Positions 8,401 through 53,560 are shown, numbered from the stretch's first letter. The stretch is DNA of 64,000 bases from an uncultured Gammaproteobacteria bacterium (GCA_964573235.1 CAZNIV010000002.1:6102-70101), one strand, 5' to 3'. Program-made: numbers and translations. Notes: a model not told the origin generated them from the letters alone.

Positions 8401-11400
8401 AGTATTTTGACCAGAGCCAACGGTAGCAAAACAATTTTGCACACTTACATATAAAGCGCCACCATTTTGATAAACCTCAGGTGGTAATGGCTTACTAATT
8501 CGTTGCCAAGGCAAACCAGCAGAAACGGTATCAATGACACGACCATTAACCGAAATCAAAACTTTAGCCTGAGGTGACGGATAAAGGTAGCTAGTATTAA
8601 TCCAGGCGGAGAAAGAATATGCATTATCGCCATCAACACTTATAGGATTAGAACGAACAGTTCCATCAGCATTAACTTTTAAATAACCAATTCCTTCTTT
8701 TCTATCTGTTTTACTAGTTGCAACCGAAAATTTATCTATTGTCCAGGCAGTATCAACTCCTGGTTTCCAACCAATTGGTTTTGGCTGATCGGCATTATAA
8801 ATATATTCAAAATCAGAGTTAGCAATGTTAGCATCCTCACCAACTTGCGACATTAAATGATAAGGATAATAACCCAATACCGTAGAACTACTCTTGCCGG
8901 ATGCATTAGGTATTTGTTTCCCTAACATTGAGTAACCAGTCTTGTTAATATCTAACCCTTTATCATAAACCGAAATTTTATTCTGATTATTAACAAACAA
9001 AGAACAATTACCCATACCATCTAAGGCGGAACATAACGCTAGACCTAAGCACTGGTCACTAGATCCAAGCACCGGATTAGGATCGTTAACATTTCCTTTC
9101 TCAAAGGTATTACAATATAACCAAGAAGCACACTGTCTATCTGGTTGAACTTTAATCACGGCATTAGCGCTAACATTAGACTTTAAGCCACTACTATCGT
9201 CATTCGCCTTATTAACAGCTATTGCCTGACTAGTGCCTACATTCTTATTTTCAATATAGTCCGCATCATAAATCAAATAAGAGCGATCTCTAGTACTAGG
9301 GTTATCGGCATAATTAACAGCACCGCGATCATTTAATAAAACACACCCCTTACGATAATCCACCATACCCTGACAACTAGCTCTACTATCAGTCATCTGA
9401 TCTGATAAATTATAATAAACTCCTGATTCTGTTAATTTTACATCAGTAACACTACCACTGGCGCCAACTAATAGGGTGCAATTTTTAGTGTCCCTTGCAT
9501 ACAAGCGACCACTGACCGAAGATGATGCTATTAAATTATAATTCAAAGATGCTGAACTGCCATCACTAGAAATAACCATGGAACCATCTGGCGACCGCAT
9601 TGAACCTTCACTACACTTAACATCAATGGCCACTTGACCATCTGCTAACATTGATAAGGAGTATAACCTATCATCTATCAAGTTAACATCCTGACTTACT
9701 ATTCCAGTCACAAAAGAATGAGTGACCTCTTTTTTATAATTAAACCCAATACTATTAATCTCCCAACCGTCTGGACGATTTATATCTCCTAAGTTTTGAC
9801 TAAAATCACCATTATATAATAAGCTGGCATAATTATTAGTTAATGGATCAATGAATTCCGTACAAGAGCTTTGTGAACTAGGGCAAACACCAGCCCATTT
9901 CATATTCTGATCTGGTTGTAACTTTTCAGAAACCACACCCAAACCAATAGTTTGATAAGGCGAAGTATCACACAAACCATCTTCGCCCATTCTGTACCAA
10001 GCCGGAGTCGAACTAGTCGTTAAAGATTTAAACTCACATACTTGCTGGCGAGGATCTTTAAAATAATTATAAGTATTATTAGTTGCGTATTCACCACACC
10101 ATAAATTTTCCGCTCGACATAAAGATCTAGAATATGTTTGCGGATCATTCTTAATATAGACCGTACTATAACCCATTACCTCGTTGCGATTATTAATAAC
10201 TGGCTGACCATAGGCCGAGCAACCCTTGTTCTCTGCTAAACAACTAAACTTTTTATCATTTACAATAAACGCTAAATTATCTTTTACCACTGAAACCGAA
10301 TCGGCTGTGGCCACAGTTCCGCCAAAACTTTCAGAAGAAGTAGCATTAGAATTATGGGTATCAATCATCGCTTCACAACCAACCGCCTCAGCGCGACATA
10401 GACTAGTAAATGATCTCAAATAAATAGGGTCAACATTATCAGTTTTATTATTATATGCTTGGCAACCTAACATTTCACCGGGATTGCAACGACCATTAGC
10501 GCAAGCCGTGCCAGTTGGATCGTCTAATTTATTATCACAACTATTGGGAGTGAACCAAGAATTTTCAATAACATAAACATTACCCTTCACCTCTTTGAGG
10601 GTTATATTGTCTATATACAAGTCATTGCCAATACTATTAGTAGCTCCTGGATTAATTGTTAAATCCTGCCAACCATCATCAGCAAAAGTAACAAAAACTG
10701 GACCCAAATCATAGCGTTGCCATTCATTGCCAATATGCACTTTAGGCACATTCAACGAAATGTTTTGCAACTGACTCTTAGCAAAATAATCACTCTGCTC
10801 TGAAGCGCTACTAAATTTAATACTCTCTAAGTCAAATCCAGCGCTACTGGCATGATCATTGTCGCCACCCGGATACCCCTTAGCCCAAAAACTTAAAGTA
10901 TAGGTATGATTTCTTTTAACATAAACCTGCTTAGAGGTAGTGGCCTTAGTGAACCAAGAAAAACCACCCACGGCAGTAGAAACAATACTTAAATTACTAT
11001 TACTACCACTCCAATTACTATAGCTATTATCAAAATTATCATTAACTAAGAAATTAATATCATTACTCAAATTGCCCGTATATTCTCGGCAACCCACAAA
11101 AGAAGCTGAGCAAGATTGCCCCATTTTTGGAACCGCCATATACACGCACTCCTTTTCATCACTCCAAAAACCATTATTACTAACACAATCACATTGCGTA
11201 ACAGAAACATTTTCATTATTCAACTCTGCGCATTGCGTAGTTAGACTTGGGTCTTGAGTTAGCGTACGACGATATGGATGACAATCATCCGTAACATAAA
11301 TAACCTTAGACAATAAGCGATAATAAACATCGCCATTGGAATCATAAAATTCTCGACAATCGGCATTAGGCGCAATATCAACACCATTAGCGTTATACCC

Positions 11401-14400
11401 ATGGGTTTCTAATTTTAAACAAATACCATATTCATGAAGCTTATCGGCCACAGACTGAGAAACAGCTCCGGTAGGAATCTGAGTGGCATCGGTGGTAGAG
11501 GAAATGTACGCTAGATAGGAAACTAAATTGTGATTTGTAATTGGCGCTAAATCAACCGCAGTCTGAATTAACTCGTCAGTAATATTAGACGCATCGCCAC
11601 ATTGGGCATCTTTATCGCTAGCACCATTATACTGCATTTTAGTACAAGGAGATCCAGACTCTACTCCAGTACTATTAGACTGTTTTAATTTAAAAGTAAC
11701 CAACTGATAACCTGTAGTTTCTGCGCCCTCCCAAGTATAATAAGTCTTAGCATCACTTGGCCCAATCGGTGCATTCTTTTGGCAAATACGCAAATTTGTA
11801 TAATATTCTTTAGATTCACCGCCAGCAACTAATTCATCAAGATTAGTAAATTCATCGCAACCAGCGTAGCTAGCAGAACAATATTTAGCTTTATTGTTAG
11901 CAATAAATTGAGTATAACGAGGGGATGAAAAAGCTGTTTGGCTTTGACGATAAACCTGATAACCATCACACTCCGAAGGACAAGAATCTATAGGCTTAAC
12001 TACTCCCGGAACTTCTGGATCACCATTTTTTGGTTCATAAAGCTTACAACCAACTTCACTTGGAATACAAACACCAGCATAATTCGAGCATTCGCTATTG
12101 CGCTTAATTAAGACATCATCCAACTCACCTTGAGTAGCCGGCCAAGAACCATTTGCACTGGCACTATAACAATTATAATACCAAGGCGCTTTTTTAAGAT
12201 AAGCTATGTCATTAGCCACAATAGTGGAAGGATCATAATCCTGATTAGTGATTGCTAATTTATACCCATCAGTGGTGGTGGTGACTAAACCACTCTGATG
12301 ACCATCGCCAACTCTAATAAACTGACTACAACCAGCCTGATTACTAGCACAAGTTTGAGCATCGCGATCAAAAAATTTGGTATTAGAAGTACTAGTAGTT
12401 ACTCCCAAATTTAAATAAATCTCATAACCACGACTAGTCCATTCCGCTATTTTAGAAGAAGTGGCGACCTTACAAGCAGAACCATTGTAGGGTATTCGAC
12501 ATTCTACTGTACCAATATTACAATCACCCTGCTGATCACATATTTTATTTAATGAATACCCTTGACTAGCCCCAAAATTAGAAGCATTCCATCGATCAAC
12601 ATTCACCTGGACCGAGGCCGTACAACCGCCAGAAATATTACACTTATTCAAAATATTATTAGTATCCGTATTCATCCAAGTAGCCACGCCCGACAAAATG
12701 CCTGTAGTAGTTGCTATGTTGTTATAATAATCACTATACCACTTACAACCAACATTATCAGCTGAACAATTTTGATAATCAAGGGTATTTTTCAAATAAG
12801 AAACGGCCACATCGCTACCTATCTGATAAGTTTGACAGGTATTATAAACTGGCTCGCACTTTGGCGCATCAAACTTCCAAACGCGCTTTTCGTTAGTACA
12901 ATAACCATAGGCTTGGCAACTACCATTAATATCTTCTTTAATACACTGTTGCTCATCACCACAATAATTATCACGACTAACGTTACCGCCCTGACTATTA
13001 GACATATCTGGGCCAAAGCCCTCACGACGACAAAATAGCTCTGGCGCCTTTAAGACCCAATACTGATCAATTAAACCAGAAAATTCCGATCCATCCTCAA
13101 ATTTATTTAATAAGTCACCCAAGGTATATGATTTACCAGTACCACCTTGTTCTACAATATATCTAGCCGCAATCTCCCAACCCACTGGAACAATGCGATA
13201 TTTACGAAGAATAATAATATTACGAAGAGTGAAAGCGGTTTGCGGATTAGTAACCTGATTAACATTTGGGGCAAAAATACGATTCTTAATAGAGTCAGGC
13301 AAATCGAAAAGTTGTTTTTTATCTCTAATCGCCTGAGCAAATTCCTGATCAATCACACAACCATCATAAGATGGGCGAGCTGGATCTATACAGCTTGCTA
13401 AGCGATTTAATAAATCATAAGGACCACCAACAGTAAAGGCTCCTTGTTTTAAATTTTGAAATTTAACTTCTGCATCGGCCTGACCACTAACGGCAGGCGC
13501 AGACTGAGAATTATATAATGGATTAGCGCTATAATTATAACTACGACCATAATCGGCATTTTTACTAAAAAAACCAGAAATTAAAGTCTTCACTAATTCT
13601 GATGTCAAAGTGTTTAAAAATGTTTCCACAAAATCAGCTGCCGTTCCACCAAGATACTGTGGTAAGGTCTGAGCCTTATCTATGCTCTGGCCCCACTGCT
13701 CTTTAATAAAACTTCCAGGGGTTAAGATGTTTTTAGCAACATCAGTAATACTCTTCCATCTACCATCCGTTATTGCGGTTAAAAAAACTTTCTTTTCCGC
13801 CGCCACCTGCCTATCGGCTACGCTGGTTTGAACAGTTAAGATAGAACCGATATCATTTTGATTTGGCTGAAAATATTCATAATAGCCCAAAGAAAAATTA
13901 GCATTATTAATGGCCGTGTCCCAATTTTTAATTGCCGTCGATAAAGAACATCTTGGTTTAGGTGGTTCTTTTACACCCAATATTGGCAAAAGATTCAACT
14001 TAATATTAAAATCTGGTTGACAAATATTAAAACCAGCGGCGCTCATAAATTTATCTACCATTTCACCCAAGGCATTATCAACAGCGTCTTGCATAATTTT
14101 ACTAGCATCTCTAGTATCATATTGTGCCTGCTGACCCTTACCACCAGATGCTACCCACTTGGCTGATTCATAAGCAATGGTTTTGGTTAACATGGATAAA
14201 CCAGACTTAAAAGCGCTCGCTATAGCATTTTTCCAAGCTTCATCTCTTGCTTTTTTTTGCAACTCCTTAGCCCAAACATTCAACTGCTCTTCATTAACCT
14301 CACCAGAGGAGTACATACTATTAGCCTTTAAACACTCCGCCTGAACGTCTAAATTGACCGAGTCCTTAACTACATTATACTTAGTAAGATTAATTAATCC

Positions 14401-14661
14401 CCCCGTACCTAATAGAAAAAAATCAGGGGCAAGATTAGATGTAATTACCCCCTTAGCAGCAGCGCCACCGGTGAGACAAGTCGCATAGGCAGCCGCCGCT
14501 TTTGCCTGTTCTGCTGAAGCTTCGGCTAATGTTATGGTGGATTCAATAGTATCCGCCCCACCATCTGCTCTAACTAGAAGGGAAAAAGAAAAGTTTAAAC
14601 CTAACAATAAAATAAAAATTAAACTTGGCCACCCACGCAAAAACCATTTTTTATTAACCAT
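5461..14661 (-). CDS. Giant secreted/cell-surface protein (3066 aa), very cysteine-rich, Asn/Ser/Thr/Gly-rich, no recognisable catalytic motif
   Basis: N-terminal signal peptide (MVNKKWFLRGWPSLIFILLLGLNFSFSLLVRA), several hundred Cys spaced as in disulfide-rich extracellular modules, single uninterrupted 9.2-kb ORF. Confidence 0.7.
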   Translation of the reverse strand: MVNKKWFLRGWPSLIFILLLGLNFSFSLLVRADGGADTIESTITLAEASAEQAKAAAAYATCLTGGAAAKGVITSNLAPDFFLLGTGGLINLTKYNVVKDSVNLDVQAECLKANSMYSSGEVNEEQLNVWAKELQKKARDEAWKNAIASAFKSGLSMLTKTIAYESAKWVASGGKGQQAQYDTRDASKIMQDAVDNALGEMVDKFMSAAGFNICQPDFNIKLNLLPILGVKEPPKPRCSLSTAIKNWDTAINNANFSLGYYEYFQPNQNDIGSILTVQTSVADRQVAAEKKVFLTAITDGRWKSITDVAKNILTPGSFIKEQWGQSIDKAQTLPQYLGGTAADFVETFLNTLTSELVKTLISGFFSKNADYGRSYNYSANPLYNSQSAPAVSGQADAEVKFQNLKQGAFTVGGPYDLLNRLASCIDPARPSYDGCVIDQEFAQAIRDKKQLFDLPDSIKNRIFAPNVNQVTNPQTAFTLRNIIILRKYRIVPVGWEIAARYIVEQGGTGKSYTLGDLLNKFEDGSEFSGLIDQYWVLKAPELFCRREGFGPDMSNSQGGNVSRDNYCGDEQQCIKEDINGSCQAYGYCTNEKRVWKFDAPKCEPVYNTCQTYQIGSDVAVSYLKNTLDYQNCSADNVGCKWYSDYYNNIATTTGILSGVATWMNTDTNNILNKCNISGGCTASVQVNVDRWNASNFGASQGYSLNKICDQQGDCNIGTVECRIPYNGSACKVATSSKIAEWTSRGYEIYLNLGVTTSTSNTKFFDRDAQTCASNQAGCSQFIRVGDGHQSGLVTTTTDGYKLAITNQDYDPSTIVANDIAYLKKAPWYYNCYSASANGSWPATQGELDDVLIKRNSECSNYAGVCIPSEVGCKLYEPKNGDPEVPGVVKPIDSCPSECDGYQVYRQSQTAFSSPRYTQFIANNKAKYCSASYAGCDEFTNLDELVAGGESKEYYTNLRICQKNAPIGPSDAKTYYTWEGAETTGYQLVTFKLKQSNSTGVESGSPCTKMQYNGASDKDAQCGDASNITDELIQTAVDLAPITNHNLVSYLAYISSTTDATQIPTGAVSQSVADKLHEYGICLKLETHGYNANGVDIAPNADCREFYDSNGDVYYRLLSKVIYVTDDCHPYRRTLTQDPSLTTQCAELNNENVSVTQCDCVSNNGFWSDEKECVYMAVPKMGQSCSASFVGCREYTGNLSNDINFLVNDNFDNSYSNWSGSNSNLSIVSTAVGGFSWFTKATTSKQVYVKRNHTYTLSFWAKGYPGGDNDHASSAGFDLESIKFSSASEQSDYFAKSQLQNISLNVPKVHIGNEWQRYDLGPVFVTFADDGWQDLTINPGATNSIGNDLYIDNITLKEVKGNVYVIENSWFTPNSCDNKLDDPTGTACANGRCNPGEMLGCQAYNNKTDNVDPIYLRSFTSLCRAEAVGCEAMIDTHNSNATSSESFGGTVATADSVSVVKDNLAFIVNDKKFSCLAENKGCSAYGQPVINNRNEVMGYSTVYIKNDPQTYSRSLCRAENLWCGEYATNNTYNYFKDPRQQVCEFKSLTTSSTPAWYRMGEDGLCDTSPYQTIGLGVVSEKLQPDQNMKWAGVCPSSQSSCTEFIDPLTNNYASLLYNGDFSQNLGDINRPDGWEINSIGFNYKKEVTHSFVTGIVSQDVNLIDDRLYSLSMLADGQVAIDVKCSEGSMRSPDGSMVISSDGSSASLNYNLIASSSVSGRLYARDTKNCTLLVGASGSVTDVKLTESGVYYNLSDQMTDSRASCQGMVDYRKGCVLLNDRGAVNYADNPSTRDRSYLIYDADYIENKNVGTSQAIAVNKANDDSSGLKSNVSANAVIKVQPDRQCASWLYCNTFEKGNVNDPNPVLGSSDQCLGLALCSALDGMGNCSLFVNNQNKISVYDKGLDINKTGYSMLGKQIPNASGKSSSTVLGYYPYHLMSQVGEDANIANSDFEYIYNADQPKPIGWKPGVDTAWTIDKFSVATSKTDRKEGIGYLKVNADGTVRSNPISVDGDNAYSFSAWINTSYLYPSPQAKVLISVNGRVIDTVSAGLPWQRISKPLPPEVYQNGGALYVSVQNCFATVGSGQNTKCMTIQQASTTVTTGCLDSNLDGQCDVSGYSLFDLISLKPILEAGKDVNNSNIYISRSCRLYPEGDSQACNYVKNGDMYNGWQGFCMVSDPNNPQICLQWWPVDKIKGDGEPYYFSKSFPLYYCAALEGDMHLVEHREVVLFNYTSKTIKSAWNSAAWYKWLGPPGLIYAGVNTVFFWHPSYTFPKVTALTGNLLDAVLGSPINNFEIEDKNYNPSGTLRQQCRGSGCGECPFGYFYHHDDEIKKAGLFKNGSVKTWDYCKPVLADLVKRDSIYTDANTSGWYEYNGDLQQIKKNDNSYFDEKEKGVQVYLKDVDGGTIMDYNKAVSSNNVGYCKYVEQVVDDAGNSKAWYSRLSAGDNFWLTNPGGVLNVRLLRNDLVPITINSGKYPFGSLVTPQSDYDPYMWDGGKPYTMGMGKGVTFGCDGDNCKRFGLCSISHTNCLAYGVVNSIILSGVQLQLGNSTNTIPRSSIGLGDLGCPTGEECYPFAALSPDTCLDNGTTCKIVATTNSIGESRELLKSIFARSYGEWEYKKIDRENMCVKDEGSDKTATRDSCTWPIVTNKITKWTCVGGFNDGFSSSTAFASTTCLSVNSVSNSCENWKTTTGKGICADFTDFSSLFYGTSSECFGLSQAEANKDCYGAFIDIRDGICMEDPYNPVKNYVCVGGPNDGIGCTTTPSSVLNSLVSCDSNVKCDNGVCDGGKFDGRECLGSTDIEKNNFCLLEYAEVKTVDKNCRYKTDPSGTIFDSGLPCSDSNDCDSSIIISGHCSRTISTACDYKGNSCSNVAGSWYHYGESTDSLNKFVWDLPTLNCVGNVRANDSSYCYIDPVVTSTNITLDGSNKNWAYEKQAVKLGFTVSVDSNQLPIQNYNINWGDSNSSSVSNVSMKDNRANPDAPYLMYHAYDYWKIKAENSKEASTANNIICSGDGQDALAESICGNKTIKPISSNESWCCVKINISVTDNWERTAEQTKGVYVIKQ

Positions 14662-22110: not shown

Positions 22111-22491
22111 ATGTGTAAAAACGCACTTTTGTTTCTCTTTTCCCTGATTCTGATTTTTTCGTGGTTTTCTGCGGTAATTGCGACAAAAGTGATTCCGAGC
22201 CAATCCGGCACTGTCACTTTCGTTCAATCCAGCGACCACGAGCTGAAATTTACCCCGTATTTTCCCAAATCGGAGCGTGACCCTCAACCGTCACTCGCCG
22301 TTTTGCCAGAAGAACCGGTAAAAATCAACAAAATCAGACACCTTCCACCAAGCAAAATCGCGTACAAAGCGAAAACTTGGGCGGATGAAAACAGGGAAAT
22401 TCCAGGGTTTTTGACTCTGCCGGGCCCGGCACGCAACAAAGATCCGTGTTGCCAAGAGGCACGGAAACTTGTAGTCTCGACACGGACCTAG
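22111..22491 (+). CDS. Island A gene 1: secreted 126-aa protein of unknown function (GC-rich, foreign codon usage)
   Basis: Signal-peptide-like N-terminus MCKNALLFLFSLILIFSWFSAVIA; GGAAAGGA SD at 22092-22099; CTG/CCG/GCG-rich codons unlike flanking host genes; terminator follows. Confidence 0.5.
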   Translation: MCKNALLFLFSLILIFSWFSAVIATKVIPSQSGTVTFVQSSDHELKFTPYFPKSERDPQPSLAVLPEEPVKINKIRHLPPSKIAYKAKTWADENREIPGFLTLPGPARNKDPCCQEARKLVVSTRT

Positions 22492-23334: not shown

Positions 23335-26187
23335 CTACTTTATACTCAATAATTTCTTTAAATACTGACCGGTATAACTATCCTTAACTTTCGCCACATC
23401 CATTGGTGTACCCGAAGCTACTAACTTACCACCAGCCACGCCACCTTCGGGACCTAAATCAATAATCCAATCCGCCGCCTTAATCACATCTAAATTATGT
23501 TCGATCACTAAAATTGAATTACCTTTATCCACCAAGCGATGTAACACTTGCAACAAACGACTAATATCATCAAAATGTAAACCGGTCGTTGGCTCATCCA
23601 AAATATATAAGGTCTTACCTGTTGGACGACGAGATAACTCGGTCGCCAACTTAACTCTTTGCGCTTCACCACCAGATAAAGTAGTCGCACTTTGGCCTAA
23701 ACGCAAGTAACCCAAGCCCACCTCTTCTAAAATCGATAATTTATCAATTACCTGAGGCTCATCAGCAAAAAACTTCTTCGCTTCCGCCACCGACATATCC
23801 AAAACATCGGCAATATTTTTATCTTTATAATGAATTTCTAAGGCATCCTGATTATAGCGCTTGCCATGACATGCTTCACACTCGACAAATACATCAGGCA
23901 AAAATTGCATTTCAATTTTTACATAACCATCGCCGGAACAATTTTCACAACGGCCACCACCTTTAACATTAAAGCTAAAATGACCTTGTTTAAAACCACG
24001 CATTTTACTTTCTGGTAACTCAGCATACAAATCACGAATGTAAGTGAATACACCAGTATAAGTGGCAGGATTAGAGCGAGGAGTGCGACCAATTGGCGAC
24101 TGATCAATGTCAATTACCTTGTCTAAATTTTCTAAACCACGCACTTCTTTATGTTTGCCTGGCAAATCACGAGTACGATAAAACCTATTAGACAAAACTT
24201 TAGTTAAAATTTCACTCATTAAGGTAGATTTACCAGAGCCAGAAACGCCCGTGACGCAAACCAATTTACCTAACGGAATTTTAACATCAATATTCTTTAA
24301 ATTATGTTCCGTGGCACCAATAATTTCAATGTTTTTACCATTACCTTGGCGATAAGACTTGGGCAAAGGAATACATTTTTTGCCGGATAAATATTGACCA
24401 GTTAAAGATTTTTTATCATTTTTTACTTCTTCAAAAGTGCCTTCAGAAACTACTTCGCCACCTAAGCTGCCCGCCCCTGGGCCAATATCAATTACATGAT
24501 CAGCTGATTGCATCATTTGTTCATCGTGCTCTACCACAATTACCGAATTGCCCTTATCTCGCAAGCGTTTTAACGCTTCAATTAACTTAGCAGTATCGCG
24601 CGCATGCAAGCCGATTGAAGGTTCATCAAGCACATAAGTAACTGATTCCAAACCGGAACCAATTTGCGTGGCTAATCTAATTCTTTGCGATTCACCACCG
24701 GCTAAAGTATTAGCACTGCGAGACAAAGTTAAATAATTCAAACCGACTTGTTGTAAAAAGATTAAACGCTTATCTACTTCTTTAATAATTTGTTTAGCAA
24801 TCTTGCCTTCACGCGATTCGCTCTTCCACTTTCTAGATAATTCATCAAATAATTTAGCCAAACTATCAATATCCAAATCAGTCATATCAGCAATCGACAA
24901 ATTATTGATTTTAATCGCCAAACTTTCTGGACGCAATTTGCGACCTTGGCAAGTGGGACAGGTAGAAACACGCATGTATTCCTCAAGAGTTTTCTGCATG
25001 TATTCACTCTTGGCTTCTAAATATTTTTCATTCAAAAATTCAATCACGCCCGGAAATTTTACCGTTGTACCTTCAACCACATATTCTTCTTGACCAGTAC
25101 CTTTCATAATCAATTCAAAAACTTTGTCGGATAATTCCGCCACCGGCACATTCAAACTAAATTTATATTTTTTCGCCACCACCTCTAACAACTTCATGTT
25201 GCTATTTTGAGAAGAAAAATTTCTGGACCAAGGCTTAATCGCGCCTTCGGCTAAAGTTAAACGCTTATTGGGAATAATTAATTCCGGATCCGGAATTAAA
25301 CGCGTACCTAAACCACGGCAAGCCGGACAAGCGCCAAAAGAAGAATTAAAAGAAAAAGAATGCGGTTCAATCTCCGGCAAGCTTATGCCACAATTGCGAC
25401 AAACATAATATAAATTAAAATTATGTTCTTGATTAGTTTCTGGCAAAAAGATATTAATAAATCCGTTACCAAAATCCAATGCTAAGTTAATCGTTTTTTC
25501 TAAGCGTTGCCAATTAACATCTTCTACTTTTTTGGCTTTAGTTTCTGAAGTCAGCGTAACAGTATCCACTAAAATTTCAATAGTATGACTAATATTTTTA
25601 TCAATCTCTAATTTTTTTGCTTCCGTAATATTATAAAAATTGCCATCGATGCGTAACAGTTCGTAATTAGCTTTATCGATCGCTTCAATTTGTTTAGTGT
25701 GAGAACCTTTTTTATTCATGACTACTGGCGCCAAGATTTGCATTTTCACGCCTTCCTTCCAGGTAGTAATCGTATCTAAAATTTGCTTTGGAGTTTGACG
25801 CTCTACTTTTTGCCCACATTTATGACAAAATACTTCGCCGATGCGCGCATAAAGCAAGCGCAAATAATCATAAATTTCTGTGACTGTACCCACAGTAGAG
25901 CGTGGATTAACCGAAGATGATTTTTGATCAATGGCAATGGTTGGCGATAAACCATCGATACTATCGACATCTGGCTTATCCATCAAATCTAAAAATTGCT
26001 TAGCATAAGAAGATAAGCTTTCGGCGTAGCGTCTTTGCCCTTCAGCATACAGCGTATCAAAAGCTAACGAAGACTTGCCAGAACCAGACAAACCAGTGAT
26101 AACCACCAATTTATTTTTGGGGATTTCTAGCGAAACATTTTTTAAATTATTAACTCGCGCACCCTTGATCGTGATCTTATCGGTCAT
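23335..26187 (-). CDS. uvrA: Excinuclease ABC subunit A
   Basis: Two ABC ATPase modules ([14 protein letters not shown]; [10 protein letters not shown]), zinc-finger Cys clusters, 950 aa. Confidence 0.95.
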
Positions 26188-26283
26188 GGGAATAAATTAT
26201 TTATCGCTAATAAAAAAGATAACCCCCATTTTACAATAATAAAGCCACCGTGTCAAATACCCGTAAAGGTTATTTTGAAAATT

Positions 26284-26322
26284 AAAAAAGGTGCCCCATC
26301 GACTTGTGGTCGACGAGCACCC
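26284..26322 (-). terminator. Intrinsic terminator after island B gene
   Basis: Minus-strand hairpin ggtgctcgtcgac...gtcgatggggcacc followed by TTTTTT; a second smaller hairpin lies at 26331-26357. Confidence 0.5.
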
Positions 26323-26369
26323 GTAAACAAGAACTGAGTGGGGAGGAACTCAGCCCCTGCTTCGATATT

Positions 26370-26930
26370 TTATCTGGATTTAACGAGCAATTCTCCGGCT
26401 TTGATGGGTGGGTCTTCTTTGAGCCCTGCATCATGCCGAAAACGCCCATAAATATCAGTGACTTTGGCATCAGTGATATCACTCTGCCCACAACGCTGAC
26501 AGCGACTACTGGCATTTGCTAAATTAATAGCCATTTGCCAATAGCGCTCTTTACTTGCCTCCTCTTGTGCCGTTACCGCCCAAACCTTTTGGCGATTATA
26601 AACAACACAAGCAACAACCACGGCCAACATCATAGCGGTAAACGTCATGCCCACTAAGTGACGATGATGTCGCACCCAGCGCTTGGCTAACACCCAAGTG
26701 ACAACCGTCGGGTAAGCCACCATCAGAGTTAAGACTACCGGCCAAGCCAATAAGTCTTTAAACCGAATCAACGACTGGTTGCACTGAAGCTTTTTTTCGT
26801 TTTGCCGATGATTGCCCCAGCATTTTTGCATGTAATCCAGCTGAGTCGCGCTAACAATATGGTTATCTACGCGATCAGTTGGCACTGTGTCACTGCTCCA
26901 CGGGACAAAGGGGTGACAGATTTTCATCAT
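26370..26930 (-). CDS. Island B: 186-aa protein with two TM helices and a Cys/His-containing C-terminal domain, unknown function
   Basis: AAGGAGGA SD at 26945..26938, 7 nt before the ATG; GC-rich E. coli-like codons; TM segments WPVVLTLMVAYPTVVTWVL and LVGMTFTAMMLAVVVACVV. Confidence 0.55.
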   Translation of the reverse strand: MMKICHPFVPWSSDTVPTDRVDNHIVSATQLDYMQKCWGNHRQNEKKLQCNQSLIRFKDLLAWPVVLTLMVAYPTVVTWVLAKRWVRHHRHLVGMTFTAMMLAVVVACVVYNRQKVWAVTAQEEASKERYWQMAINLANASSRCQRCGQSDITDAKVTDIYGRFRHDAGLKEDPPIKAGELLVKSR

Positions 26931-27022
26931 AGAAACATCCTCCTTGGGTTGTGGTTGACTGATAAATTATCATTATATAAACAGCTCTAAGCTGATTGAT
27001 AAGGTACGATAAATAACTCATT

Positions 27023-27051
27023 AGTATTTCATATTTTACCACTTTTGTCAA
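27023..27051 (-). promoter_or_regulatory. Promoter for island B gene (TTGACA-17-AATACT), -35 overlapping the divergent truD -35
   Basis: Minus-strand TTGACA at 27051..27046; -10 at 27028..27023. Confidence 0.4.
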
Positions 27052-27073
27052 CCCAACTCAAATTTGATATAAT
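27045..27073 (+). promoter_or_regulatory. truD promoter TTGTCA-17-TATAAT; the transcript would be essentially leaderless
   Basis: -10 ends at 27073 and the ATG is at 27083; there is no SD. Confidence 0.45.
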
Positions 27074-27082
27074 AAATATATT

Positions 27083-28462
27083 ATGGAAGATTTTTTAACT
27101 ATCTTAGCGAAACAAAAAAGTTTTTTAGATAAACTGCAAAAAGAGCAGCCGTCTTTATTTACTATTGAACAAATTTTAGATGAAGAAACAACTTTAAAAA
27201 ATATTGGCATCACCACCTTAAGCAATAATCGCCCTGATGGCTATATTAAATTATATCCCCAAGATTTTATTGTGGAAGAGGTTCGTCAAAATGGCACTAT
27301 TAGTGTCATTGAACCAAAAGATGATTTTCCCCTGGCACAAGACGGCAAAAAAACTTTATATTGCAATTTAGTTAAAGCTAATGTTTCTACTATTGATGCC
27401 ATTGCTCGGTTAGCCAAAGCACTTAATCTGGCGCCAGAAAAAATTGGCTATGCTGGTATTAAAGATAATCAAGCTATTACTAGCCAACTAATCGCCTTAC
27501 CTAATATTAACGCTGGTCAAATCACCAGACTAAAAACGGAAAGCTTTTTTTTAACCAACTTTTATTATGGCACCGGCTCACTAAATGTGGCTGATTTAAC
27601 TGGTAATTCATTTACTATTCTAGTGCGTACCAAAGAAAAAATTGATCAGGAGCATTTAAAGCGGGAATTCAAAAAAATAAAAGATAACGGCTTTTTAAAT
27701 TTTTACCAAACTCAACGCTTTGGCACTCCGCGCTTAATTGGCCACCACTTAGGTAAAATGATTTTGCAAGGCAACTATGAGCACGCCATTAAAGCTTTTT
27801 TACTTTACTCCAGTATTCATGATTTAAAATTAGTGCGCATGATTCGCACCGAAGCGCAACAACTTTACGGTTATTGGGATAAAATGAAAAAAGTTTTTGC
27901 TTCTATGCCTGTTACTTTTCAACATGAACTAAAAATCTTATCTCACCTAGAGCAACACCCCCAAGATTTTATTGGTGCTTTACACGCCGTAAAAGATCAA
28001 AGCACTTTATGGATTTATGCTTACCCCAGTTATTTATTTAATTTATTACTTTCCGAGAATCAAAATAATTTACCACCAGAACTGCCTTTACTATTAAATG
28101 ACAATGAAAAAGATATAGCCTTATATCAAAATTATTTAACGCGTGATGGTATTACTAATTTTGCTAAAGCATTAAAACCATTTAAGTTCATTCAGCTTAA
28201 GCGTCGTTTAACGCCAACCCGTGTATATCCTAAAAATATTATGTTTATGTCGACGGATGAGGGTGTGATTTGTCATTTTGATTTGGATAAAGGTTCTTAC
28301 GCTACTTCATTTTTGATGAACTTATTTAAATTATCTAACGGGTTACCTTATCCGGCTTGGACTAAAAAAACACCTTGTGATATTAAAAAATATCTACAAT
28401 TAGGCACTAATGCCGAGGTAGTTAAGAGATTGGGTGATTATATAAAAAGAGAGCAAGTTTAA
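27083..28462 (+). CDS. truD: tRNA pseudouridine(13) synthase TruD-family protein
   Basis: GYAGIKDNQAITSQ and FGTPRLIGHH motifs typical of TruD/Pus7; 459 aa. Confidence 0.7.
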   Translation: MEDFLTILAKQKSFLDKLQKEQPSLFTIEQILDEETTLKNIGITTLSNNRPDGYIKLYPQDFIVEEVRQNGTISVIEPKDDFPLAQDGKKTLYCNLVKANVSTIDAIARLAKALNLAPEKIGYAGIKDNQAITSQLIALPNINAGQITRLKTESFFLTNFYYGTGSLNVADLTGNSFTILVRTKEKIDQEHLKREFKKIKDNGFLNFYQTQRFGTPRLIGHHLGKMILQGNYEHAIKAFLLYSSIHDLKLVRMIRTEAQQLYGYWDKMKKVFASMPVTFQHELKILSHLEQHPQDFIGALHAVKDQSTLWIYAYPSYLFNLLLSENQNNLPPELPLLLNDNEKDIALYQNYLTRDGITNFAKALKPFKFIQLKRRLTPTRVYPKNIMFMSTDEGVICHFDLDKGSYATSFLMNLFKLSNGLPYPAWTKKTPCDIKKYLQLGTNAEVVKRLGDYIKREQV

Positions 28463-28478
28463 TTTTAAAATACCATAT

Positions 28479-28523
28479 AAAAAGTTTTAGAGCTCCAAAT
28501 CGACATAGTCGACGCGGAGCTCT
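28479..28523 (-). terminator. Hairpin terminator downstream of island C gene 1 (nested SacI-SalI-SacI palindrome)
   Basis: 8-bp stem agagctcc/ggagctct around a 19-nt loop; a T5 run follows on the minus strand. Confidence 0.4.
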
Positions 28524-28550
28524 TGGTTTGTGAGGCTGGGCTTACCTCAG

Positions 28551-29135
28551 TTATTTGACGCAGGAGAAATGAACACTGCCCGCGGTGTCCATGGAGATAC
28601 CCATGTGGTTGATCTCCTCCAACTTGTAGCAATCAGCCGTCCGGGAATGGGACGGGTTAATGGTGATCGAGCGATCCGGGTTGTCGAAAACATGGACAAA
28701 CTCGAACACTCGCTCCATGATCGCCTGGATGGCAACTTCCGCCTCCTTGCTCAGCTGAACGGGTTCACCGTCAGCAAAGTTCAGATACAGAAAGCTCATG
28801 TGATCTCCGGCCTTCTTGATGATGTTGGTGCCAATCAGGTTGAACCCGATCGCCTTCATCTCGGCCATAATGCGATCGAACGAAATCATCGTCCAACCCG
28901 TGGGCCCCCAACCAGTGCGGGGCTTGCCGGAATCAGCCTGGCGATTGCCGGCCGCGTCCGTGCGATTGCCACGGAACGCATCCTTGCCAAGCTGCTCGGC
29001 CTGAAACGCGTGATTCTCGATGATCTCGCGCTGTTTGGCCTGACTCAGCACGGCCTTGGCGATACCACCAACCTTGCGAAGCTCTTCAGCGGCGGAGTCG
29101 GCAATACGGACACGAATCAGAATTTTGGTAACCAT
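28551..29135 (-). CDS. Island C gene 1 (194 aa), unknown function
   Basis: AGGAGA SD; its own consensus promoter; strongly GC3-biased codons (ctg, cgt, gcc, ggc, atc, aag). The overlapping plus-strand 225-aa ORF is rejected. Confidence 0.65.
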   Translation of the reverse strand: MVTKILIRVRIADSAAEELRKVGGIAKAVLSQAKQREIIENHAFQAEQLGKDAFRGNRTDAAGNRQADSGKPRTGWGPTGWTMISFDRIMAEMKAIGFNLIGTNIIKKAGDHMSFLYLNFADGEPVQLSKEAEVAIQAIMERVFEFVHVFDNPDRSITINPSHSRTADCYKLEEINHMGISMDTAGSVHFSCVK

Positions 29136-29213
29136 TTTTTTCTATCTCCTGTTTGTTGGGCATTATTGCCCGTTGTTGATGTACGATACACTTACTTGTA
29201 CAAGTGACCCATT

Positions 29214-29242
29214 ATTATAGCACACATCGCCAAAAATGTCAA
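29214..29242 (-). promoter_or_regulatory. Perfect-consensus sigma70 promoter (TTGACA-17-TATAAT) for island C gene 1
   Basis: Minus-strand -35 at 29242..29237 and -10 at 29219..29214; the 5'UTR carries the palindrome GGGCAttatTGCCC at 29158-29171. Confidence 0.65.
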
Positions 29243-29334
29243 TACATTTGACCTTATTTTACCCTATTTTAGCTATTTTAAACCAAATTTAGCCAAAATA
29301 AAAAGCCCCACTTATTGCAGGGCGTAAAGATTAC

Positions 29335-29820
29335 TTAGCCTCGATGACTCAGAACAATCTGGCCATCGATAACGTGCATATCCAAGTAAGCACGCTTTTT
29401 GACCGGGCAATCCAAGCGATTGCTCGAGCCAGTTAAACGCAACACGGTTAGTTCGGGCTGTTCCTTGACGGCAAACACCTCAGCCAGGTGGCGATATTCC
29501 ACTAATTGCCGACGCAATACATAACCCACCATCTCGGGAATGCCACTGCTTTTCTCTTCGCTTATATCCACGGCCAGCCAAAGACTTTTGCCATCGGCTC
29601 CCTTCCAGAACCAAAAAGTCTGGAGTTTTAGGTTACAACTATTAAGGGCGCTGATAGCTTCCCCAATAAAGATATTTTTCCGTCCGCCCATCTCCCAACC
29701 CTTGACCAAAACGCGGGTCTGAGTGGGAATGGGATTGACCGATTGTGGCACCAGACCAGAATCCAGCAACTTTCTTGCCAAGTCTGGTAACAGACACACT
29801 CTGATTTGAATTGTTTGCAT
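29335..29820 (-). CDS. Island C gene 2 (161 aa), unknown function
   Basis: AAGGAG SD 6 nt before the ATG; GC-rich codons; no dedicated promoter, sits downstream of an attenuator hairpin. Confidence 0.6.
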   Translation of the reverse strand: MQTIQIRVCLLPDLARKLLDSGLVPQSVNPIPTQTRVLVKGWEMGGRKNIFIGEAISALNSCNLKLQTFWFWKGADGKSLWLAVDISEEKSSGIPEMVGYVLRRQLVEYRHLAEVFAVKEQPELTVLRLTGSSNRLDCPVKKRAYLDMHVIDGQIVLSHRG

Positions 29821-29844
29821 TACTACTCCTTACGATTGAGTGTT

Positions 29845-29867
29845 AAAAAGGCTCGCGAGTGCGAGCC
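29845..29867 (-). terminator. Intrinsic terminator or attenuator between island C gene 3 and gene 2
   Basis: ggctcgc-actc-gcgagcc hairpin followed by TTTTT on the minus strand, only 12 nt before the gene 2 SD. Confidence 0.55.
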
Positions 29868-29888
29868 AAAATTGTCACCATCGCAATG

Positions 29889-30395
29889 CTAGCGACAGAT
29901 TATCTCCAACAGACCAGATGTATCGTCGCGACTGACCACAAAGGTGAACAAGTGGCCATCAAACTTGTGATCGGGAATGGGATTAGCCGCCTTGATTTGC
30001 ATTACCATGTCCGGATTTTCCGAATCATTCGCATTGCTAAAGGCGATAACACTTTCAAACACATGATCATTCAGCCAGTTGCGAATGAACTCCATCTGCA
30101 GGGGGCGTTTCGAGTTGCGACGAGTGAACTCCAACCGCAGATAACGCCGATGCGCTTCTTCGGTTAGTCCCACTTCGGTCAAGCGAAGCGCAACCGAGTC
30201 AACATCTTCCAGTAACCCCGCCAAACTGACACCATGGACGGTGTTCTTGGCGCCATTGATGCCGTGCTGGGTACCGACGAGACGCATCTTCGCCTTGTCG
30301 ACCGTAATGCCAATCTCTTGACAGCGATCATGCGCCGCCAAAGTAAGACCAACAAAGATAGTCAACACCTCTTCCTGCTCTCTTCTCTTTGGCAT
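29889..30395 (-). CDS. Island C gene 3 (168 aa), unknown function
   Basis: AAAGGGAGGAA SD 7 nt before the ATG; GC-rich codons. Confidence 0.6.
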   Translation of the reverse strand: MPKRREQEEVLTIFVGLTLAAHDRCQEIGITVDKAKMRLVGTQHGINGAKNTVHGVSLAGLLEDVDSVALRLTEVGLTEEAHRRYLRLEFTRRNSKRPLQMEFIRNWLNDHVFESVIAFSNANDSENPDMVMQIKAANPIPDHKFDGHLFTFVVSRDDTSGLLEIICR

Positions 30396-30457
30396 GGTTC
30401 TTTCCTCCCTTTATTGCTTGGTTGAACACTTATCAAACTAATTAAACGTACAAAAAA

Positions 30458-30496
30458 CTTAGTTATTGGTTTACCACATAACTAAGCTTCTGTCAA
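30458..30496 (-). promoter_or_regulatory. Island C operon promoter (TTGACA-17-TAAACC) overlapped by a perfect 9-bp inverted repeat, a candidate operator
   Basis: IR arms cttagttat (30458-30466) and ataactaag (30478-30486) with an 11-nt spacer cover the -10 region; -35 at 30496..30491. Confidence 0.45.
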
Positions 30497-30510
30497 TGCT
30501 TTAAATATTT

Positions 30511-31407
30511 TTAAACTAAGCCGTATTTTTTGATATTTTCATCAGCAATAACTTGAATTTTAGCCAATTCTTGCTGACTAGACTCCTTTTTAAATAAATG
30601 TTTAAAACGCTTTTGTATTTTTAAATACTCTTCCGCCGGAACGCGCTGGGTAATCTTTTGTACTTTTACCAATTGACCATTAACATACTCGACAATTGGA
30701 TAAATACCCGACTGCACCGCCAACTGACCAACTTTAATTGTTTGATTAGGCTCAATACCCCAACCCGGAACGCATGGCACATGAATCTGTAAATATTTTG
30801 GGCCTTTTATTGATAAAGCCTTTTTGATTTTTAATTCTACATCAATTGGATAAGCAATTGAAGCCGTAGCCACATAAGGCAAATGATGTGCCAAAGCAAT
30901 GCCGATCATATCTTTTTTCAACTGTTGCGCGCCATTAGAATCTTTGCCCGGTGGAGTGGTGGTAGTATTAGCATCAAATGGTGTAGAGCTACTGGATTGA
31001 TAACCAGTATTCTGATAAGCCTCGTTATCATAACAAACATACAAAATATTATCTCCACGCTCCCACATGCCAGACAAATGAATTAAACCAATATCAAAAG
31101 TGGCACCATCGCCACCAACAGCAATTATATTAGTATTATTATCCGCCTTCTTATACCTTAAGGCCGCCTGAATACCCGTGGCTACCGGAGCCGCATTTTC
31201 AAATAAAGAATGAATCCAAGGCATTTTAAAGGAACTCATCGGAAATTGTGTAGTAGTCACCTCACTACAACCAGTAGCATTAGAAACAATAGTATTTTTA
31301 CCAGCGATATCCATTAATATGCGTGCCGCAATAATCATACCGCAACCAGCGCAAGCGCTATGACCGGGATTTAATTGATGATGTAATGGCGCTTTATATT
31401 TACCCAT
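30511..31407 (-). CDS. porB: Pyruvate/2-oxoacid:ferredoxin oxidoreductase beta subunit (TPP-binding)
   Basis: CAGCG Cys motif, GDG thiamine-PP binding region, 298 aa. Confidence 0.85.
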   Translation of the reverse strand: MGKYKAPLHHQLNPGHSACAGCGMIIAARILMDIAGKNTIVSNATGCSEVTTTQFPMSSFKMPWIHSLFENAAPVATGIQAALRYKKADNNTNIIAVGGDGATFDIGLIHLSGMWERGDNILYVCYDNEAYQNTGYQSSSSTPFDANTTTTPPGKDSNGAQQLKKDMIGIALAHHLPYVATASIAYPIDVELKIKKALSIKGPKYLQIHVPCVPGWGIEPNQTIKVGQLAVQSGIYPIVEYVNGQLVKVQKITQRVPAEEYLKIQKRFKHLFKKESSQQELAKIQVIADENIKKYGLV

Positions 31408-37955: not shown

Positions 37956-38039
37956 GCCGAAATGGTGAAATTGGCAGACACGCAACGTTCAGGTCGTTGT
38001 GGGCTCACGCTCGTGAGGGTTCAACTCCCTCTTTCGGCA
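37956..38039 (+). tRNA. tRNA-Leu (anticodon CAG), no encoded CCA
   Basis: 7-bp acceptor stem gccgaaa/tttcggc, anticodon loop ttCAGgt, long variable arm, T-arm agggTTCAACTccct. Confidence 0.8.
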
Positions 38040-45913: not shown

Positions 45914-46201
45914 TCAGATATGGACCGCTACGGAGCGACCGTGAAGATGCTCCTCGCGCTTCTTGAACTCTTTGGCACACTTGTCATTGCAAACATGGCC
46001 GATATGCACGTCGATTGACCGCACCGGAATGCGGTAATGACCATGCGGATCCTTGTCGCTCAGCGGATTCAAGCACAGCAGACACTGTTCGGGGATCTCG
46101 ACCTGCGGCCGGTGATGCTCAGCCGAAATTTCCGGCGGAATCATCGTCGCAACATCGTCACCTTGAACACCCGCACCGCCCGTCCCTGTTGATCCTCCCA
46201 T
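45914..46201 (-). CDS. Island D: 95-aa Gly-rich N-terminus plus Cys/His-rich putative zinc-ribbon protein, unknown function
   Basis: AGGAGG SD 7 nt before the ATG; CxxC...HxH...HIGHVCNDKC pattern; GC-rich codons. Confidence 0.55.
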   Translation of the reverse strand: MGGSTGTGGAGVQGDDVATMIPPEISAEHHRPQVEIPEQCLLCLNPLSDKDPHGHYRIPVRSIDVHIGHVCNDKCAKEFKKREEHLHGRSVAVHI

Positions 46202-46285: not shown

Positions 46286-46314
46286 ATTATAGGATAAAAT
46301 CGCCTTTATGTCAA
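46286..46314 (-). promoter_or_regulatory. Perfect-consensus promoter TTGACA-17-TATAAT for island D, abutting the rsmE stop codon
   Basis: -35 at 46314..46309 sits directly next to the rsmE TAG at 46315-46317. Confidence 0.65.
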
Positions 46315-49201: not shown

Positions 49202-50155
49202 TCAATTCACACCGACCAAATCCTCTTTGTTTATCACAGCAATTTGCCAATTGTGACAAAACTTAAATTGAATGTCATTAGAGCAACAATTAAACTCCTC
49301 CATAATCAGGCGAATTACCACATTATGCGTTAACCGCATCAACGCATCCAAGCGGTTATTGCGACTGGAAAAAATATCCCAGTCTGTCGTCATCTGTTGA
49401 CGTCGCCAAATCTTCACTCCCTCCGCGCTATCCTCAACATTATCCGGCCAGTAATCCTGACGGACCTGATCGAAAAAATGTGTCAATGAATAGAGTTGCT
49501 TAATCGGCTCAGAAATAACCACTCCCAAAACCGAGTCACGCGAACTGGCCGCCGGAAACCGATCACCCAAAGAGCTTTTGATTTTTGAGCGACCGGTAAT
49601 GATTTCTTCTACACAACGGAAGTAATCATTTAGGAAATGATAGCCCGACCTAAACATCAGTGGCAATTGCTCATCGAAATCAGCGGCCACAATAACATGC
49701 CAGCCGTAGCAGATGTCCCACTCGCTGGCCGGATAAGCCAACAATGGGTGCTGAGAAATAATCGACTCATCAAACATGTCGGCAATGATATTCAAGCACT
49801 CATCTTCCGCCTTCAAAAAACTGAGAAACTCAAGCTTTTTTTCGGGCGGCAGAATAGCTGCGTGAGCGATATCAATCGGGCCACTGGGAACAATTCCCGC
49901 ATTCAAGCCATAATCGGCCACCATACAATCCTTCATGAAAAGCCGTTTTTGCCTTTCATAATATTTCTCCGCCAACTGGTAAAGATACCACCAGCGCTTT
50001 GGCCCATCGCCATTAACCACACCCCAAACTCGGCTATTTTCTTCCACCTCGTCTTCATTCGGCTCAATACCGGAAAACTTTCTGAGCGGAACCTTATCCT
50101 TAAAACCTAAGCGTAAAACTTCGCTCAAACGAAGGGGTTTCATTTTGTAGCTCAT
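49202..50155 (-). CDS. Island E gene 1 (317 aa), unknown function
   Basis: Start MSYKMKPLRL with AAGGAGGA SD 5 nt upstream; the track ORF is over-extended to 50212. GC-rich codons. Confidence 0.6.
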   Translation of the reverse strand: MSYKMKPLRLSEVLRLGFKDKVPLRKFSGIEPNEDEVEENSRVWGVVNGDGPKRWWYLYQLAEKYYERQKRLFMKDCMVADYGLNAGIVPSGPIDIAHAAILPPEKKLEFLSFLKAEDECLNIIADMFDESIISQHPLLAYPASEWDICYGWHVIVAADFDEQLPLMFRSGYHFLNDYFRCVEEIITGRSKIKSSLGDRFPAASSRDSVLGVVISEPIKQLYSLTHFFDQVRQDYWPDNVEDSAEGVKIWRRQQMTTDWDIFSSRNNRLDALMRLTHNVVIRLIMEEFNCCSNDIQFKFCHNWQIAVINKEDLVGVN

Positions 50156-50218
50156 AACTTCCTCCTTGGGTTGTTTGGTTGCTATTTTTACTGACTTTTT
50201 TATAAAGAACACCCCTTT

Positions 50219-51273: not shown

Positions 51274-51332
51274 GGTCACTTCTCCTTATGCTTTCTTGGT
51301 TGACTAACATTTTATACAAAGAACGACTCATA

Positions 51333-53406: not shown

Positions 53407-53560
53407 CCAGAGTCGTCACAGTGACGATTTTAGATATAATTGTTCCTTTCATTTTTATTTGAAATTAACAAGCCGGGTGGTTTGTTGATGATAGGATAGG
53501 GGCATGTCGCCCGCAGTATCTGGAAAAGTAGGCCCAAAAGGCCAAAGGAGGAGAGTTCCC

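Follow-up and report, generated by a model that had tools for sequence, protein, structure and literature searches.

A truD-linked gene of the Candidate Phyla Radiation and two probably younger neighbours in the GC-rich interval between truD and porB

Among the described settings close to the locus analysed here is the truD neighbourhood of Escherichia coli, the ispD-ispF-truD-surE-pcm operon. The locus, named island C, is a 2-kb stretch between truD and porB in 64,000 nucleotides of DNA from an uncultured bacterium (GCA_964573235.1, CAZNIV010000002.1:6102-70101; this whole stretch is called the window), and it carries three minus-strand open reading frames (ORFs), C1, C2 and C3. The likeness is that truD has a conserved link to small soluble stress or housekeeping proteins; the difference is that the partners in E. 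coli are co-directional, co-transcribed and members of known families, whereas C1 is convergent to truD, has only a terminator in common with it and belongs to no known family. Horizontally acquired islands offer a second comparison: island C resembles them in its step from 36% to 50-60% GC, its orphan ORFs and the presence of several such islands in the window, and differs from them in that C1 is syntenic and vertically inherited across classes of the Candidate Phyla Radiation (CPR), without mobility genes or repeats. A previous reading made from the sequence alone (the sequence-only reading) had taken the three ORFs for an operon tuned to the stoichiometry of a three-component system. The account judged most probable here, well short of certainty, is that island C, instead of forming a three-component operon, combines an old autonomous gene, C1, with two young lineage-specific genes, C3 and C2. 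The promoters, terminators and hairpins of the island are ordinary; the gene family beneath them is not. All coordinates are those of the window unless a locus is named, and promoters, terminators and read-through are sequence predictions throughout.

A word-indexed search of C1-C3 against 5.8 billion proteins gave a single relative of C1 (locus L010), with 41-42% amino-acid identity. This result alone would wrongly suggest that C1 is a near-orphan, so a full HMMER profile search was needed. The profile of two sequences (C1 and the L010 homologue), run against 1.84 billion cluster representatives, retrieved 132 proteins at E ≤ 1e-3 (64 at E ≤ 1e-10), mostly of 170-250 amino acids (aa). Their source names, where given, are Patescibacteria, Parcubacteria, Uhrbacteria, Doudnabacteria or "bacterium", and C1 itself matches the family profile (alignment A3) over its full length with 201-202 bits. 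By sequence similarity, C1 is a member of an uncharacterised family that comprises about 130 sequence clusters and is spread across CPR/Patescibacteria. Fourteen loci were informative for gene context (the window, L010, L011, L012, L013, L015, L025, L026, L037, L041, L044, L046, L049 and L051; profile E-values 1e-103 to 8e-7), and in all 14 the C1-family gene lies tail-to-tail with truD while the other neighbours all differ. The gap between the two genes is 50-350 nucleotides (nt), 88 nt in the window, and usually holds one hairpin. The sole non-adjacent pair is that of L051, where a small gene (3770-4138), encoding a 122-aa protein of the 23S_rRNA_IVP family, is interposed. The C1-family gene is monocistronic in every informative locus; that of L010, a GC-rich gene inside an AT-rich contig, is a lone gene with a TTGACG-17-TGcTATAAT promoter, a leader hairpin, a Shine-Dalgarno (SD) site and a terminator, convergent with truD and without C2 or C3. 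Promoters of the form TTGAC[A/T/G]-17-TAnnnT precede the gene in 11 of 13 loci (10 of 12 without the window), with an extended TG in nine. The homologue leaders are 17-150 nt long, often hairpin-rich and of no common sequence, and no Rfam family was found in the island or in these leaders. The gene neighbourhood that is conserved around C1 is its pairing with truD, and not that of a three-component system: the C1 homologues of 14 other loci lack C2 and C3, and C2 and C3 have no homologues, which leaves no co-occurrence.

The TruD proteins of the organisms that host C1-family genes are only 33-51% identical to one another, so the linkage of C1 and truD has outlived extensive rearrangement. At a shorter distance, two Uhrbacteria loci have TruD proteins that are 90% identical and C1 homologues that are 67% identical, which fits co-inheritance with C1 evolving faster than TruD; this pair excepted, the correlation between pairwise C1 and TruD identities is uninformative at these depths. 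The C1 family might instead be a selfish site-specific element that inserts 3' of truD in the manner of a free-standing homing-endonuclease gene. Its position beside a conserved gene is invariant while other neighbours vary, it forms an autonomous promoter-gene-terminator unit of atypical composition, its product has a beta-hairpin motif H-x3-N-x7-N-x2-H, and another gene of selfish type, the 23S_rRNA_IVP gene of L051, was inserted at the same site. This explanation is nevertheless quite unlikely, since neither sequence nor fold indicates a nuclease family, HNH and GIY-YIG included, the GC excess extends across hosts of very different GC and does not follow one donor composition, and the two Uhrbacteria loci co-diverge with TruD.

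Some further features were noticed around the pair. In L026 (1358-1915), L035 (809-1157) and L012 (7204-7276), the C1 homologue is closely preceded by tRNA genes or clusters, and the cluster of L026 contains a group I intron (1473-1702; Rfam RF00028, 66.7 bits). On the other side, 5' of truD, there is a GC-rich minus-strand ORF without Pfam match both in the window (186 aa, with hydrophobic segments that suggest a membrane protein) and in L012 (10212-10520, 102 aa), so that truD is flanked on both sides by GC-rich unassigned ORFs in at least two lineages.

As the sequence-only reading had held, C1-C3 belong to no recognised family: Pfam, NCBIfam, PHROG and PADLOC gave no match to the three proteins, and no family among 81 members of the C1 family, for which PADLOC gave one isolated weak match. 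A function of C1-C3 in anti-phage defence or as a toxin-antitoxin system was discarded, there being no PADLOC match to them. PDB sequences gave no credible match to the family profile, and the family had no match in phage and plasmid records or in a motif scan of viral contigs; the two-sequence C1 alignment found no related loci in genomes, metagenomes and viral contigs. With a degenerate DNA motif built by hand, five CPR loci and L035 were recovered. The remaining 19 matches of this motif are false positives, which have only a 'NPDGSxTVNAAH'-type motif in common. In Acidimicrobiales loci (L029 1801-3951; L016, L023, L024, L028, L031, L032, L034 and L036), large ORFs carry one or two copies of 'NPDGS[IL]TVNAAH', identical to the hairpin motif of the C1 family and with no wider similarity. 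The contig of L035 (DATJFX010000024.1), binned as 'Candidatus Methylomirabilota', has a C1-family gene, ten tRNA genes and 41% GC, and looks like a misbinned CPR contig. Fused domains gave no clue to function, as the long matches P0058 and P0065 are repeat or tetratricopeptide-repeat proteins and spurious, and the other long members are domain-free. Literature searches gave no report of a truD partner of this kind or of GC-rich genes in CPR.

The AlphaFold2 model of C1 from an alignment of 81 sequences reached a predicted local distance difference test score (pLDDT) of 96.3 and a predicted template modelling score of 0.91, and replaced a poor model made from two sequences (pLDDT 53). The predicted elements are, in order, an N-terminal beta-alpha-beta unit, a long helix, a conserved loop and two beta-alpha-beta-beta(-beta) units. 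The loop of the family reads G-R-D-x-F-R-G-x-R-x-D-x-x-G-x4-D-S-G-x-P-x-F-G-W and the terminal hairpin H-x-H-x-F-R-N-P-D-G-S-x-T-x-N-P-S-H. The near-invariant residues D68-S-G70, N152, T158 and N160 are all present in C1, while H148 (77%), R58 and D60 are less conserved in the family. The members are mostly mildly basic (median isoelectric point 8.5), and no signal peptide or transmembrane segment is evident in their sequences. Foldseek comparisons of the model gave no significant match in the PDB (best E 0.43) or among viral models (best E 0.26). Among the weak matches, beta-alpha-beta-beta-beta modules of the glyoxalase/bleomycin-resistance type recur, far below significance; the vicinal-oxygen-chelate fold (glyoxalase, bleomycin resistance, extradiol dioxygenase) was rejected because the paired modules gave no significant superposition. 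The C1 family has a confidently predicted alpha/beta fold without a solved (PDB) or viral-model relative, and it lies outside known families in Pfam, NCBIfam, PHROGs, PADLOC, PDB sequences and structures, and viral structure models. From the fixed truD pairing, the tRNA clusters upstream in three loci, the mild basicity and the conserved polar residues, a role in RNA or tRNA metabolism, with or around TruD, is the most economical guess; it is a guess by association, and clearly less likely true than not.

The two other ORFs of the island have a different distribution. C3 and C2 matched only themselves among the 5.8 billion proteins, and the locus was found in nine further contigs from several samples that are essentially identical to the window, SRR7053536, SRR7053533 and JGI 3300020163 being among the samples with this population; a scan for TruD in the metagenomes of the Joint Genome Institute recovered the same organism only, with no empty C2/C3 site for comparison. 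Residues 53-146 of C3 align with the C-terminal half of the C1 family (hhalign probability 80.6%, E 1.3e-5), and in a HMMER search with the family profile C3 was the only match besides C1 among 317 six-frame ORFs of the window, with 20 bits against 2.7 bits for the next. C3 is without the N-terminal RxD...DSG loop, has M/Q at the position of T158 and K/A at that of N160, and has lost most of the invariant residues. On these alignments, C3 is a lineage-specific degenerate or neofunctionalised paralogue of the C-terminal half of C1, and not the distinct component for which it had been taken. C2 scores 2.3 bits against the same profile, which is noise level, and has no significant relation to the family. 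The content of GC at third codon positions (GC3) decreases from C1 (0.71) to C3 (0.59) and C2 (0.53), against 0.28 in the host, a gradient such as duplication followed by amelioration would give, and for that reason a local origin of C3 and C2 by duplication and divergence is inferred, weakly in the case of C2. Some minor observations belong to these two genes. Translation of a 22-nt direct repeat (29720-29741 and 29968-29989, 82% identical) gives 'VNPIPTQ' in C2 and 'ANPIPDH' in C3, and the corresponding family motif reads 'INPSHSR' in C1; the repeat is possibly the last trace of a common origin, or chance. The NCBI annotation of C2 (MEI6627032.1) has a later start and 154 aa, and the start used here has an AAGGAG SD site at proper spacing. 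A borderline resemblance of C3 residues 25-95 to the archaeal/eukaryotic-type ribosomal protein eS24 was set aside as probably chance, as it concerns one PDB chain (9e71_BV, phmmer E 0.0033) with no Pfam S24e match at E ≤ 1.

All three ORFs were confirmed at the positions first proposed, and each has a strong SD site at correct spacing. When C1 is compared with its L010 homologue, the three codon positions have nucleotide identities of 0.56/0.65/0.37, and the third base is the same in only 31 of 77 identical residues. C1 is thus a true protein-coding gene, with purifying selection on the protein and saturated synonymous sites. The same codon-position pattern fits the minus strand, so that the 225-aa ORF antisense to C1, which was called in place of C1 on two ENA contigs (L002 and L003), is an artefact that high GC3 produces. 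Several homologous loci also have an equivalent ORF open on the antisense strand; these ORFs are a by-product of rare A-ending codons and can mislead gene callers. That long ORFs stay open on either strand of GC-rich DNA, and that the RNAs fold unusually stably, could be turned into the view that the GC-rich ORFs are not genes, and are instead chance ORFs in GC-rich non-coding DNA or structured non-coding RNA. This view is extremely unlikely, given the 132 protein homologues, coding substitution pattern and high pLDDT of C1, the lack of any Rfam match or conserved RNA structure, the SD sites of all three ORFs and the match of C3 to a protein profile; such evidence excludes it for C1 and makes it unlikely for C3, and for C2 alone it may still hold.

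The features of the island, its flanks and the other GC-rich ORFs of the window are collected in Table 1. The truD gene is convergent to the island, as first described; porB, which had been placed there with its 3' end convergent to that of truD, is on the same strand as C1-C3 and directly upstream of them. The hairpin with T5 after C3 was found as described, and the proposal that C2 would be expressed only by read-through stands, as there is no promoter space 3' of this hairpin. Its interpretation as an attenuator does not hold, because the hairpin comes after a full-length 168-aa ORF and no Rfam match at E ≤ 1 was found in 26000-31000; it is better described as a predicted intrinsic terminator between cistrons. 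Two hairpins that had escaped notice follow C2 (29323-29300) and C1 (28489-28523), the latter a predicted bidirectional terminator common to C1 and truD. All four hairpins of the island lie just 3' of a stop codon (porB, C3, C2 and C1) and are followed by a run of U or T, and with a terminator after each gene the island would be divided into two or three transcription units, against a single tuned operon of three genes. The promoter of C1 and the palindrome in its leader were both confirmed; strong promoters and leader hairpins recur among the homologues, the latter with unrelated sequences. Near-consensus sigma-70 promoters are frequent in the host genome, before truD and uvrA among others, so the C1 promoter is not exceptional, and the totals of promoter-like and terminator-like elements in the region show no excess over shuffles.

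Table 1. Coordinates of the features of island C, its flanking genes and the other GC-rich ORFs of the window
Feature	Position	Strand	Basis and details
porB (thiamine pyrophosphate-dependent subunit, pyruvate:ferredoxin oxidoreductase)	30511..31407	-	ORF, PF02775, NCBI name; last gene of upstream por cluster
porB terminator candidate, inverted repeat + U6	30452..30489	-	arms 30489-30478 / 30466-30455, U6 30457-30452
C3, 168 aa	29889..30395	-	ORF; SD GGGAGG 30409-30404
GC hairpin (7 bp, 6 GC) + T5	29845..29867	-	21 nt past C3 stop; -16.4 kcal/mol, z -4.8
C2, 161 aa	29335..29820	-	ORF; SD AAGGAG 29831-29826; without own promoter
Hairpin + T-run 3' of C2	29300..29323	-	-11.5 kcal/mol
C1 promoter TTGACA-17-(TG)TATAAT	29214..29242	-	12/12 consensus match, extended TG
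C1 5' untranslated region stem-loop GGGCA-uuau-UGCCC, GGGCAttatTGCCC	29157..29172	-	-8.3 kcal/mol; leader ~72 nt; SD AGGAG 29150-29146
C1, 194 aa	28551..29135	-	ORF; CPR-wide family member
Hairpin between C1 and truD 3' ends	28489..28523	both	-24.6 kcal/mol minus strand, -22.6 plus strand
truD (tRNA pseudouridine-13 synthase)	27083..28462	+	convergent neighbour of C1
Antisense 225-aa ORF across C1	28530..29207	+	codon-aligned reverse frame; not a gene
GC-rich ORF without Pfam domain	26370-26930	-	186 aa, 5' of truD
GC-rich ORF without Pfam domain	45914-46201	-	
GC-rich ORF without Pfam domain	49202-50212	-	
GC-rich ORF without Pfam domain	50308-51279	-	
GC-rich ORF without Pfam domain	53504-54343	+	
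GC-rich ORF without Pfam domain	22111-22491	+	

The perfect inverted repeat cttagttat-N11-ataactaag at 30458-30486, for which a function as repressor operator had been suggested, is present and its arms extend to 12 nt. As minus-strand RNA it would fold into a hairpin with some 16 pairs in its stem (-16.9 kcal/mol; z -3.8 relative to shuffles), where the U6 on the downstream side pairs with an A-tract on the upstream side, and it begins 24 nt past the porB stop (30511) on the same strand. This is the anatomy of a terminator and not of an operator, and the stem-loop with U6 shortly past the porB stop makes an intrinsic terminator of the por cluster the most likely prediction. In comparison with known intrinsic terminators, the pairing of A-tract and U-tract in the porB hairpin and the stability of the C1/truD hairpin on both strands are as usual; the AT-rich stem of the porB hairpin and the -35/-10-like promoter that overlaps it are not. 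This promoter-like TTGACA-17-(TGg)TAAACC (-35 at 30496-30491, -10 at 30473-30468) had been described as the promoter of the operon with a weak -10. Its -35 is indeed perfect and its -10 weak (3/6, without the final T), and both elements overlap the probable terminator. The repeat is unique in the window (0.1 chance matches expected at ≤3 mismatches) and absent upstream of the C1 homologues, whose leaders are unrelated; for C3 there is no homologous locus to set beside it. No cognate DNA-binding regulator was found among C1-C3, which have no Pfam or NCBIfam match at E ≤ 1, DNA-binding families included.

These observations bear directly on the idea that C3, C2 and C1 are subunits of one system, in which a repressor-controlled promoter, an attenuator before C2 and an internal C1 promoter set the ratios. 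The genes are on the same strand, closely spaced, all unassigned and all GC-rich, a hairpin with T5 stands directly before the SD site of C2, a promoter-like site overlaps the repeat, and the distant kinship of C3 and C1 makes a hetero-oligomer of paralogues conceivable. The idea is very unlikely all the same, because the C1 homologues stand alone while C2 and C3 have no homologues elsewhere, the repeat is built and placed like a porB terminator with only three of six matches in the overlapping -10, no island protein matches a Pfam DNA-binding family, and a further terminator follows C2.

The island has sharp edges in base composition: C1-C3 have a GC of 0.49-0.56 and a GC3 of 0.53-0.71, against about 0.36 and 0.28 in the host. 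A recent arrival between truD and porB of foreign DNA from a GC-rich donor, be it a mobile cassette or what is left of a prophage, would explain such edges, the orphan ORFs and the similar GC-rich orphan islands elsewhere in the window. It is an unlikely explanation, since C1 is syntenic with truD across lineages and has saturated synonymous sites, which makes it old, resident and still GC-rich. Moreover, no integrase domain, transposase domain, significant flanking direct repeat or adjacent tRNA was found in the region, the only tRNA being at 37956, there are no phage, plasmid or viral-contig matches, and all homologue contexts examined are CPR-like. Recent transfer would be possible for C2 and C3 only, yet C3 is a paralogue of the resident C1. 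The excess is furthermore a property of the family, as GC3 is far above that of the adjacent truD in 12 of the 14 loci, with GC at first and second codon positions raised too. Values for the homologue and its truD include 0.71 and 0.27, 0.69 and 0.31, 0.94 and 0.38, 0.87 and 0.48, 0.83 and 0.49, 0.75 and 0.38, 0.84 and 0.32, 0.97 and 0.61, and 0.82 and 0.39; in a host of 64% GC they are 0.98 and 0.86. With synonymous sites saturated, this excess must be actively maintained.

The coding RNAs of the family also fold more stably than expected. Against synonymous-codon shuffles, which keep the protein and the codon usage, the mean z of the C1 family is -2.77 (n=13), and 9 of the 13 RNAs beat all 40 shuffles, compared with a mean z of -0.85 for 25 neighbouring genes (Mann-Whitney p 2e-4). 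Dinucleotide shuffles give a mean z of -3.0 for the family and -0.8 for truD. The two AT-normal members likewise exceed their own shuffles in folding stability, and C3 and C2 show no such effect (z -0.8 and -1.2). RNAalifold on the codon alignment gave a structure conservation index of 0, without positionally conserved structure, so the folding signal is one of global compactness and not of a specific RNA element. It is inferred that the C1-family mRNA is selected for strong structure and is probably long-lived, and a long-lived mRNA would fit the strong promoters of the family.

Taken together, the preferred account of an old C1 and two young neighbours would work as follows. Transcription of the por genes would end at the inverted repeat, and transcripts of C3 would arise mostly by read-through or at a weak promoter that overlaps the repeat. 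As young genes, C3 and C2 would be weakly expressed by read-through of successive terminators, and C1 would be an old, strongly promoted, monocistronic gene with a bidirectional terminator in common with truD. Its protein would be made abundantly from a long-lived mRNA and may act in RNA or tRNA metabolism, either with TruD or in a regulatory coupling to it. Several points weigh against this account. The functional link of C1 and TruD is purely positional, and convergent genes are not co-transcribed. An origin of C2 by duplication cannot be demonstrated from its score of 2.3 bits, C2 and C3 occur in one population only (the nine near-identical contigs), and the case for their coding status consists of ORF length, SD sites and the 20-bit match of C3. 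The porB stem has only 2-3 G-C pairs and is no GC-rich stem, a terminator scan (≥3 GC pairs, loop 3-8) did not report the repeat, and a weak promoter could still overlap it. Finally, the distant members L041 and L046 are at host composition, so that GC excess is not a defining property of the family, and the GC-rich members L043 and L015 show no excess folding.

The C1 family joins three oddities, namely an invariant convergent pairing with truD, a GC excess maintained under vertical inheritance and a hyper-structured coding RNA. GC3 values of 0.7-0.98 within genomes of GC3 0.3-0.6 contradict the custom of taking a GC anomaly for a sign of recent transfer, and together with the excess RNA folding they suggest selection on the physical properties of the mRNA; if this were general, programs that find islands by composition would wrongly call such genes foreign. 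Uncharacterised proteins dominate CPR genomes, and a strict and testable genomic partner such as TruD is a rare handle on one of them. The locus would also be a clean example of local duplication and decay, from C1 to C3 and perhaps to C2. A bolder proposal, doubtful as a whole, is that the family is a CPR-specific TruD partner with an unseen fold, a small RNA- or tRNA-binding or catalytic protein, whose gene would be kept in its tail-to-tail position beside truD by some functional or regulatory need, of which antisense or terminator coupling is an example. Selection would act on its mRNA for extreme GC and global structure, giving AT-rich reduced genomes a message that lasts very long or is translated conditionally; C3 and C2 would show the birth and decay of new genes from this template, and what holds for the family may also hold for the other GC-rich orphans in the window.

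At least six further GC-rich ORFs without Pfam domain are present in the window (Table 1), with GC3 of 0.49-0.72 against about 0.3 in the host, and near-consensus promoters lie just upstream of such ORFs at 46314, 51361 and 53378. Two of these ORFs, of 336 and 323 aa, are tandem paralogues (21% identity over the full length, E 7e-6), and three of the four GC-rich ORFs tested fold more stably than their synonymous shuffles, with z from -2.7 to -4.3. In another part of the window, a 1005-aa membrane protein (2426-5443, minus strand), adjoined by a giant ORF of 3066 aa on the same strand (5461-14661), has a GC-rich central segment rich in Gly and Ala at about 3500-4700, and the rise of GC there is an effect of amino-acid composition and not an island.

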